Virus record (IMG/VR): IMGVR_UViG_2671180296_000011
Span: 1-23,719 of that record
Strand: one strand, 5' to 3'
From: a virus
Lineage: Duplodnaviria; Heunggongvirae; Uroviricota; Caudoviricetes
Length of the DNA stretch: 23,719 nucleotides
This document shows positions 1,559 to 2,420 of the stretch, piece by piece. A program made the translations under genes and the position numbers. The notes beneath the pieces were generated by a model, which saw only the letters and a list, made by a program, of their open reading frames with translations, was not told the origin of the DNA and made no database searches. Positions within the stretch are counted from its first letter, which is position 1. Each line of letters starts with the position of its first letter.

Positions 1559-2026
1559 CTAGTTAATACACTGAGTGCGGATATATTCCTGCGCCCCTTC
1601 CAGCTGCTTCTGCATCATCATCAACCGCTCTCTGAGAGTGAAATAATCCCGTTCAACTGTGTCTGCCAGTCGGGGGCCGGTTGCATTATCCACGCCGGAG
1701 GTGCCGGTGGCTTCACGCACGGTACCGGAGCAGGTGGCGTTGATCCGCAGGCGCTTACGACCAGCGGCAACATCAGCACGCAGAGTTTCATTTTCAGCTC
1801 TCGCATCGGCTAATTCCCTCGAGTATCTGGCATCAAGTGCAGCGACATCACGCTGGCGTATCTGCATATCAGTAATTGTCGCGTTCGCCAGCTCCAGCTC
1901 TCTGACTTTTTTATCGCGCTGCGCTTTGTAGGTGATGGCGTTATCGCGGTAATGATTCAGCCCCAGACCAAGCGCACCACAGGCTACCAGCAGGACAATA
2001 ATCACCACACACAGAACACGGTTCAT
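1559..2026 (-). CDS. i-spanin Rz (lysis, inner-membrane spanin subunit)
   Basis: 155 aa with N-terminal TM segment and ...[17 protein letters not shown]...DVAAGRKRL...[17 protein letters not shown]..., closely resembling lambda-family Rz. Confidence 0.85.
1621..1791 (-). CDS. o-spanin Rz1 (outer-membrane lipoprotein, embedded in +1 frame of Rz)
   Basis: Embedded [35 protein letters not shown]... has a lipobox (VVSAC) and a proline-rich mature part typical of Rz1. Start set at the second Met. Confidence 0.7.
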
Positions 2027-2154
2027 ATCCCCCTCACCCCAGCATCCCCGACGAAGACAACATCATCCAGCCTAAGAGCAACCAGCATTAGTGAAAATGA
2101 AATGCCGACGATTACACAGAGGATCTTCGCCAGCGTTATGAGCTTGTCTGACAT
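2023..2154 (-). CDS. hypothetical 43-aa single-TM peptide, stop overlapping Rz start (ATGA)
   Basis: [46 protein letters not shown] with AGAGGA about 8 nt upstream. Its TGA overlaps the Rz ATG. Below the 60-aa ORF-track cutoff; found by manual translation. Confidence 0.3.
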
Positions 2155-2166
2155 GCTTAATCCTCT

Positions 2167-2349
2167 TCACGATTTCAACGCAATGACCAGTTTTGCCAGC
2201 CCATACAGCATCGGAGACACAGCAATACCGACCGCCACCCACTTAATAGCAAAAGCCAGCGCTCTGCTGATGTCATCAGTTACAGGCGCTTTCAGTTCAA
2301 GGCCGTTTTTCATAGTCAACCTCAACAGAATTCGTTTATACTTTTCCAT
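2167..2349 (-). CDS. hypothetical 60-aa protein with C-terminal TM segment
   Basis: Internal Met MEKYKRILLRL... preceded by AAGGGAGAA. The longer 86-aa version would have to encode through the 2383-2415 hairpin, so the short start is preferred. Confidence 0.3.
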   Translation of the reverse strand: MEKYKRILLRLTMKNGLELKAPVTDDISRALAFAIKWVAVGIAVSPMLYGLAKLVIALKS

Positions 2350-2382
2350 GTTCTCCCTTGCCTTATCCAAGGTCAGAAACAC

Positions 2383-2420
2383 AAAACCCCGCTTGCTGCC
2401 AACAAACGGGGTTTTACTTT
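2383..2420. terminator. GC-stem hairpin (AAAACCCCG...CGGGGTTTT) with T-rich flanks on both strands; possible bidirectional terminator
   Basis: 9-bp stem at 2383-2391 and 2407-2415. TTTTACTTTTATT follows on the plus strand and TGTGTTTCT on the minus strand. Lies about 90 nt downstream of the endolysin stop. Confidence 0.45.

Follow-up and report, generated by a model that had tools for sequence, protein, structure and literature searches.

The holin-endolysin-spanin lysis pathway of the lambda type is usually held to be complete. In phage P2, the endolysin gene K is separated from the spanin genes lysB/lysC by lysA, a non-essential gene that reportedly affects the timing of lysis. Mu releasin and LambdaSo Lcc6 illustrate that additional small membrane proteins can be required for lysis. 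Releasin (gp25; DUF2730) is a small protein that spans the inner membrane once and has a cytoplasmic domain; it is required for release of the SAR (signal-anchor-release) endolysin, and its gene sits near the endolysin gene (PMC9239132). Lcc6 of Shewanella LambdaSo is a protein of 65 amino acids (aa) with a single transmembrane domain (TMD) that is strictly required for lysis in a system with a pinholin, a SAR endolysin and Rz-Rz1 (doi 10.1101/2024.01.23.576932). Here, we analyze a 23,719-nucleotide (nt) stretch of Caudoviricetes DNA (IMG/VR record IMGVR_UViG_2671180296_000011, positions 1 to 23,719; the whole stretch is referred to as the window), which contains a defective, lambdoid prophage of Escherichia coli. 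In this prophage, two small open reading frames (ORFs), here ORF60 and ORF43, lie between the endolysin gene R and the spanin gene Rz. ORF60 is a real gene and ORF43 belongs to a conserved gene family. With slightly less than even confidence, we suggest from their sequences and surroundings that the two would be made late and assist lysis as accessory proteins of the inner membrane, and that translation of ORF43 and Rz would be linked.

Like P2 lysA, ORF60 and ORF43 would be membrane-protein genes between endolysin and spanin genes. LysA has ~140 aa and several TMDs whereas ORF60 has one C-terminal TMD; the likeness is positional, and sequence similarity is not expected. The setting resembles that of Mu releasin in that R of the window is SAR-like and the holin is a phage-21-type pinholin. 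However, the TMD of releasin is N-terminal (N-out, C-in) and its acidic cytoplasmic domain comes after it, while in ORF60 the order is reversed and the N-terminus is basic; moreover, ORF60 has no DUF2730 match in Pfam and, unlike releasin, also accompanies soluble endolysins. Lcc6, which is compared by its description, has an N-terminal TMD, and its gene is close to xis, at a distance from the lysis genes. By analogy, P2 LysA, Mu releasin and Lcc6 may thus serve as positional or functional precedents, and none of them appears to be homologous to ORF60 or ORF43.

Conservation of ORF60 and ORF43 between R and Rz

R (3038..2505) and Rz (2026..1559) are 478 nt apart in the window, and the minus strand holds every element of the gap. 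Beyond the R stop codon, these elements are a leader of ~89 nt (2504..2416), a 33-nt bidirectional hairpin that was found by folding and resembles a terminator on both strands (2415..2383), a small hairpin over the Shine-Dalgarno (SD) sequence of ORF60 in the RNAalifold consensus (2377..2351), ORF60 itself (60 codons, 2349..2167) and ORF43 (43 codons, 2154..2023). The SD sequence of ORF60 is GGGAG (2357..2353) and that of ORF43 is AGAGGA (2166..2161), which lies within the 12-nt spacer after ORF60. A preliminary description of the window had reported the separation of R and Rz by a GC hairpin and two single-TMD ORFs with SD sequences, and all of these elements were confirmed. A check of K-12 Qin for homologues showed that nothing separates R and Rz there, and the two genes overlap by 4 nt.

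ORF60 is under frame-specific purifying selection. In comparisons with Salmonella homologues, the ratio of non-synonymous to synonymous substitution rates (dN/dS) is 0.12-0.28 in frame at dS 0.6-1.8, with a value of ~0.15 at dS 0.7-0.9, while the other two frames give 0.6-11 (0.7-5 alongside the value of ~0.15). Among 48 unique R-Rz intervals examined, 46 have all 60 codons of ORF60 intact, the exceptions being the rearranged locus L004 and a Salmonella type in which the script chose an internal Met. ORF60 matches the profiles of phrog_1115 (E=1.4e-42 over residues 1-60) and phrog_4493 (E=4.8e-30), both families of unknown function. The family is tiny: when 1.84 billion representative proteins were searched with its profile, 19 clusters were recovered; our searches returned no homologues outside Escherichia and Salmonella, and none of 29 pattern matches in GTDB representative genomes was confirmed as a relative. 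Distant members share the motif KYxRI..rl.MK[ND]G.E.[DE]AP, followed by a variable hydrophobic helix that ends in ALKS or RWW. Hydropathy analysis (Kyte-Doolittle, KD) of ORF60 predicts one TMD (residues 30-58), and the AlphaFold (AF2) model contains helices 2-18 and 23-59 at a predicted local distance difference test (pLDDT) score of 76. The net charge is +6, mostly in the N-terminal segment. We therefore model ORF60 as a basic N-terminal helix followed by a C-terminal membrane helix, with the topology predicted from these features. Scans of Pfam, NCBIfam and PADLOC gave no match for either ORF, Pfam and PHROG gave no holin match for either at E<=0.1, and no significant relative of ORF60 was found in a profile search of the PDB or a fold search of BFVD.

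ORF43 (phrog_4906) has one predicted TMD at approximately residues 5-29, and our searches found no family member outside E. coli. The length of 43 codons is the same in 19/19 unique intact alleles, i.e. those among the loci fetched by that stage. The first 26 codons are nearly invariant (dN/dS ~0.1-0.2, dS up to 0.66), while the last 17 codons fall into strongly differing types with dN/dS 0.3-0.85 between types and 0.07/0.94 within type B; all the same, the C-terminal types retain the hydrophobic pattern F/L-S-x-A-W-x-x-L-[ST]-x-S-G-L-x-G. The window copy lacks 11 nt (TTTTCTTTCCA) near position 2075 and, as a consequence, codons 28-43 are frameshifted and the 16 C-terminal residues are replaced. 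Because of this deletion, only residues 1-28 of the window ORF43 match the 49-position profile of phrog_4906 (E=7e-15), short of a full-length match, while residues 1-43 of the canonical protein match (E=2e-23). The exact window allele is present on 331 contigs, arguing that it is a stable lineage variant. Some other loci have a +1 insertion early in ORF43, and in others it is replaced by a 28-codon ORF that corresponds to the C-terminal half of an ORF60 relative of the RWW type.

The junction of ORF43 with Rz is of three types. In the window, the stop codon of ORF43 overlaps the start codon of Rz as ATGA (2026..2023), as reported in the preliminary description; in the commonest allele the two are fused as GTGA, a class that rests on our reading of GTG as the Rz start; and in other alleles there is a 7-nt gap, with the Rz SD sequence over the ORF43 stop codon. 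The ATGA overlap arises because the window ORF43 is read past its normal stop after the 11-nt deletion. Thus, this overlap is derived and lineage-specific, while the close linkage of stop and start that made it of interest is general. ORF43 and Rz have the stop-start proximity of a translationally coupled pair and may be coupled, as the preliminary description had proposed from the overlap. A long hairpin that takes in the Rz SD sequence is predicted for the 3' half of ORF43 in canonical alleles, with the deleted 11 nt as its 5' arm.

To determine how widespread the interval is, we queried 5426 complete E. coli genomes with 701 nt across it at a coverage of >=80%. The interval is present in 1491 of these genomes, i.e. 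in more than a quarter, at up to 14 places per genome; strain GB089 carries an identical copy, and prophages of O157:H7 have a version with 92% identity. It has been annotated solely as "hypothetical": the PGAP label for both ORFs is "hypothetical protein", every cluster member is named "hypothetical", "uncharacterised" or "transmembrane protein" in its source, and what was already known of the two ORFs is this annotation and their grouping in PHROG families of unknown function. Literature searches by accession, PHROG id and gene position found nothing on these ORFs. The plaque-forming phages PhiR12_1 (PV340549) to PhiR12_5 carry ORF60 and ORF43, and the interval is likewise present in PhiR5_2. 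In Shiga toxin (Stx) phages, the same slot contains ant, then an ORF43 homologue, then Rz; ORF43 therefore directly precedes Rz in phages in which toxin release depends on lysis. GC content does not change sharply at the borders of the interval, where it is 0.45-0.50, compared with 0.50-0.60 for R and Rz.

ORF60 follows four unrelated types of endolysin in the window and the fetched loci. These are a T4-type lysozyme with a SAR-like N-terminus (window, L085, L087, L095), a soluble GH19 endolysin (L086), a soluble transglycosylase (L090) and an M15 peptidase (L044, L094), and the accompanying holins are from at least three families. The GH19 endolysin and the transglycosylase have no N-terminal hydrophobic segment. 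Because cassettes with soluble endolysins carry ORF60, what it is associated with is the spanin end of the cassette, not the SAR type of endolysin. For the same reason, a releasin-like role as the general function of ORF60 was rejected. A role as a spanin subunit was also rejected for both ORFs, which have at most a few periplasmic residues and no periplasmic domain; the flanking Rz/Rz1 pair, and not the small ORFs, has the features of a two-component spanin. ORF60 and Rz are 1-20 nt apart in relatives, and in the M15 cassettes a 60-aa lipoprotein takes the place of Rz. In the latter (L044, 2692-2874; L094, 2649-2831), the ORF60 homologue is separated by 1 nt from the lipoprotein gene (lipobox LLVGC, phrog_7528), and a partial scan of the neighbouring ORFs recognised no spanin.

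A covarying hairpin and constraint in the 5' end of ORF60

ORF60 is preceded by the hairpin AAAACCCCGTTTGTT-GGC-AGCAAGCGGGGTTTT, which has a 15-bp stem with an A-run before and a T-run after it. The stem is followed by UUUUGUGUUU and, on the opposite strand, by UUUUACUUUUAUU, and U-tracts flank the hairpin on both strands in E. coli as well as in Salmonella. In every ORF60-family gene examined, the most divergent members and the tail-fibre context described below included, the hairpin precedes the start codon by 35-55 nt. Its outer stem (AAAACCCCG/CGGGGTTTT) is fixed, and variation in the inner stem is compensatory: 89% of the hairpin cells are paired versus 38-62% in slid controls, and pair 10-24 shows four pair types. 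The hairpin thus covaries. In structure and conservation, it has the features of an intrinsic (Rho-independent) terminator, and we predict that it terminates transcription; a simple terminator scan overlooked it in the window, yet in L095 it detected a hairpin of identical sequence. In six lineages (the window and five relatives), the region between the endolysin gene and ORF60 yielded no promoter-like site on the sense strand. Taken together with the terminator upstream, this leads us to infer that ORF60 and Rz are probably reached only by terminator-resistant, Q-modified late transcription.

The leader upstream of the hairpin is, by alignment, common to Salmonella ORF60 cassettes behind the non-homologous GH19 endolysin and to the ant cassette of Stx phages. 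Because homology breaks at GTGAATAAA(A)G, the leader resembles a recombination linker. The conserved part is ~85 nt long (2416-2504 in the window, ~2822-2915 in L086 and 1597-1680 in L092) and includes a conserved GGATAACAC.AAATC hairpin. No Rfam family was found within 2023-2510, either at the gathering threshold or at E<=1. The anti-small RNAs (anti-sRNAs) and Pas sRNAs of enterohaemorrhagic and enteropathogenic E. coli (EHEC and EPEC) lie upstream of the holin and none lies in the interval, and the hairpin sequence is absent from the supplements of Tree et al.

A second signal overlaps the coding sequence. Between the window and Salmonella L086, codons 3-18 of ORF60 differ at 0/48 nt while codons 19-60 differ at 32/126, corresponding to dS of 0 and 1.16, respectively (Fisher p=1.3e-5); the synonymous sites of codons 3-18 are thus constrained. 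From the 3' arm of the hairpin to the SD sequence, identity is 87-100%, while the leader is far more diverged. Codons 3-13 contain a promoter-like site on the plus strand, i.e. antisense to ORF60 (2313..2342; -35 TAGTCA, 18 nt, -10 TATACT), and this site is at the same position in six lineages (window, L086, L090, L095, L094, L088). It matches at 9-10 of 12 positions; the -35 hexamers are TAGTCA, TTGTCA, TGGACA and TTGGCC, while the -10 hexamer, in codons 3-5, is invariant, and in L088 the encoded amino acids differ. This suggests an antisense RNA of ~75 nt (~2349 to 2425) that would be complementary to the SD sequence and AUG of ORF60 and end at the hairpin. The constraint may also fit structure in the sense RNA. 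RNAalifold predicts that the invariant small hairpin (2351..2377; UUCUGACCUUG/CAAGGGAGAA) pairs the SD sequence of ORF60, and it also pairs a conserved internal GAGG; all pairs around these SD sequences are invariant and, therefore, carry no covariation support. The internal GAGG precedes Met13 (ATG 2313..2311), a possible second start, and is retained in L088 despite a change of residues from LRL to VEA, which hints that ORF60 may also be translated from Met13, as a 48-aa form.

Proposed role in lysis and alternative explanations

Based on these data, we suggest the following model. The R-Rz junction of this lambdoid prophage would be a modular site for cargo. Its ancestral state would be the 4-nt overlap seen in K-12 Qin, and its defined left joint consists of the conserved leader and then the hairpin. 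In this model, the late promoter, antiterminated by Q, would drive the two small inner-membrane protein genes at this site together with the lysis genes. ORF60 travels as a unit with the upstream bidirectional terminator-like hairpin and its structured 5' region, and is placed directly before the spanin gene regardless of the type of endolysin or holin. The upstream terminator, possibly together with a cis-antisense RNA, would keep ORF60 silent unless late transcription is on. Once made, ORF60 would be an accessory protein of the lysis cassette at the cytoplasmic membrane that modulates the timing or efficiency of lysis, while the fusion or adjacency of the ORF43 stop codon to the Rz start codon would link Rz translation to ORF43. 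The preliminary description offered lysis regulation as one possibility, and from position this is plausible. We favor a late accessory role in lysis because the genes are placed in the late operon, because adjacency to the spanin gene is strict across cassettes, and because there is a terminator upstream without a promoter. The candidates that the interval offers are a C-terminally anchored protein that tracks the spanin genes, a leader-like ORF joined to Rz and, possibly, an antisense RNA.

The ant cassette of Stx phages (933W-like) fits the idea of a cargo site, as it occupies the same slot with the same leader and a hairpin of its own, followed by ORF43 and Rz. Ant, however, is a soluble antirepressor and unrelated to ORF60. 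In Salmonella L085 (2338-3192), an antirepressor gene and an ORF60 homologue are both present between the endolysin gene and Rz, and the two cassettes are, therefore, stackable and not strict alternatives. In some loci, the small ORFs are shuffled (L004, 2889-3237; L005, L039 and L043, ~2690-2780). For instance, one order is ORF43, a chimeric ORF in which an alternative frame of the ORF43 3' end is fused to the C-terminal half of ORF60, and the 28-codon ORF (MSAELIRAMAFAIRIVAIAVLVWAIRWW), which corresponds to half of an RWW-type protein such as the 50-aa protein of GER2.

Several observations weigh against a role in lysis. No homology of the two ORFs to a characterised lysis protein, holin, releasin or defence protein was found. 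In the L088/L089 lineage, the ORF60 cassette follows a tail-fibre gene and is outside any recognised lysis cassette. Lambda, phage 21 and K-12 Qin manage their lysis or its organisation without either ORF, and ORF60 and ORF43 are, therefore, not essential to the lysis pathway. Because it is deleted, replaced or frameshifted in some loci, ORF43 is dispensable at least in prophages. Finally, the idea that the 11-nt deletion unmasks the Rz SD sequence was dropped since the computed accessibility barely differs between the deleted and canonical alleles (0.27 versus 0.14-0.31).

Among the alternatives, the main rival to a role in lysis is that ORF60, and perhaps ORF43, is moron or lysogenic-conversion cargo that is made in the lysogen, benefits the host or excludes other phages, and is merely parked at a permissive gene boundary in the manner of HK97 gp15 or lambda Bor. 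The mobility of the unit, the use of the same slot by ant in Stx phages and in L085, the narrow and patchy distribution, and the presence of the cassette after tail-fibre genes, a classic moron site, with terminators on its flanks, would all be expected of such cargo. In the sense of Juhala et al. 2000, a moron has its own promoter upstream and its own terminator downstream. In the window, the terminator is upstream and not downstream, although L088 has a downstream terminator, and with this terminator directly upstream and no sense promoter-like site in six lineages, independent expression in the lysogen is improbable. Moreover, the base composition of the interval is not distinct, PADLOC gave no match, and adjacency to the spanin gene is kept across five different types of lysis cassette. 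On this evidence, we regard a moron or exclusion function as unlikely. It is far less likely still that the ORFs are chance frames or decaying remnants in a defective prophage, an option that the preliminary description had left standing. The window prophage is truncated with IS1 in place of its morphogenesis genes, its ORF43 is frameshifted, and some loci (e.g. L004) are shuffled or chimeric. Nevertheless, the selection on ORF60 and its intact 60 codons refute decay for this gene, both ORFs are intact in viable phages, and ORF43 keeps its length in all unique intact alleles. Thus, decay describes in part the window copy of ORF43 and not its family. Similarly, disrupted small frames, which the preliminary description had named as the observation that would count against it, were found in the window ORF43 itself and not in ORF60, which is open in nearly all intervals.

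Two further alternatives concern how the genes work, and each seems to us possible but doubtful. In the first, ORF43 is a mere leader ORF that delivers ribosomes to, or unmasks, the Rz start after cargo parted R and Rz, and its peptide has no function. The stop codon of ORF43 is always fused to the Rz start or at most 7 nt away, predicted pairing joins its 3' half to the Rz SD sequence, its last 17 codons evolve fast between types, and a frameshifted allele persists on many contigs. The low dN/dS of the first 26 codons and of the C-terminal part within type B, the fixed length and the maintained hydrophobicity speak for a functional peptide instead, as does the finding that where ORF43 is missing, a different small TMD ORF and not nothing precedes Rz. 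The other alternative is that ORF60 is an antisense-gated membrane toxin, as in type I toxin-antitoxin systems or P22 sar/ant. In P22 sar/ant, lambda OOP and hok/sok, a short cis-antisense RNA that overlaps the ribosome-binding site and ends at a terminator controls a gene that does harm when mis-expressed. The predicted ORF60 antisense RNA would have the same arrangement, and an RNA of ~75 nt from codons 1-2 to the hairpin would block translation until late transcription swamps it. The invariant -10 hexamer at the same antisense position in six lineages, the U-tracts of the hairpin in both directions, the synonymously frozen codons 3-18 and the small, hydrophobic product are consistent with such a gate. 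By contrast to the known systems, the antisense RNA is predicted only, no separate promoter was found for ORF60 and Rfam gave no match; the promoter-like site is an incomplete match to consensus, and the constraint might stem from sense-RNA structure at the two SD sequences or from a recombination boundary. An antisense-gated toxin and an accessory lysis protein are compatible and non-exclusive. A more specific combination, which on the sequence we consider rather improbable, is that ORF60 is a toxic or lysis-modulating, C-terminally anchored protein, perhaps in two forms (Met1 and Met13), whose translation is controlled by the ~75-nt cis-antisense RNA that shares the bidirectional terminator with the endolysin transcript. 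If true, this would place a type I toxin-antitoxin-like gate within the late operon of lambdoid and Shiga-toxin-related phages.

The surrounding prophage

The endolysin R is a T4-type lysozyme (PF00959, E=2.7e-24; phrog_7) with an Ala/Gly-rich, weakly hydrophobic and SAR-like N-terminus (KD maximum 1.74, residues 9-27). Rz is the i-spanin (PF03245, E=8e-49), and the o-spanin gene Rz1 (1806..1621, minus strand; PF06085, E=6e-21) is embedded in it. The phage-21-type holin (4351..4136, minus strand; PF04971) has the N-terminus MYQMEK, in which Met1 and Met4 match the dual-start arrangement of phage 21 S71/S68. Between the holin and endolysin genes are two cargo ORFs, one of 213 aa on the minus strand (4132..3491; phrog_1085) and one of 104 aa on the opposite strand (3167-3481; phrog_1853); relatives have a YdfR-family gene instead of this cargo (3113-4132). 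Q is at 9333..8512 on the minus strand and the integrase gene at 22424-23719 on the plus strand.

Directly after Rz is an ORF of 74 aa (1311-1535, minus strand; phrog_2571). It is a gene fragment that covers just positions 100-172 of the 291-position profile. The insA/insB genes of IS1 follow 355 nt beyond Rz (436-1203) and, next to them, a truncated Mn-catalase-like ORF (1-438) takes its stop codon from the IS1 end. No packaging or morphogenesis genes are present in the window prophage, and IS1 is in their place. Because the morphogenesis genes are gone, selection on the lysis genes is possibly relaxed in the window copy.

The prophage also encodes several known RNAs. Upstream of the holin gene, STnc100 (RF02076, 149 bits) is on the minus strand at 4648-4846, and an Esr41-like hairpin RNA is on the plus strand at 4492-4582 with a sub-threshold score (39 bits; gathering score 102). 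The stretch 4492-4846 is the region of the reported EHEC anti-sRNAs and Pas sRNAs. Elsewhere in the prophage (5681-5931, 11776-11950 and 18914-18965) are two tRNA genes, a sok antitoxin RNA and a DicF RNA.

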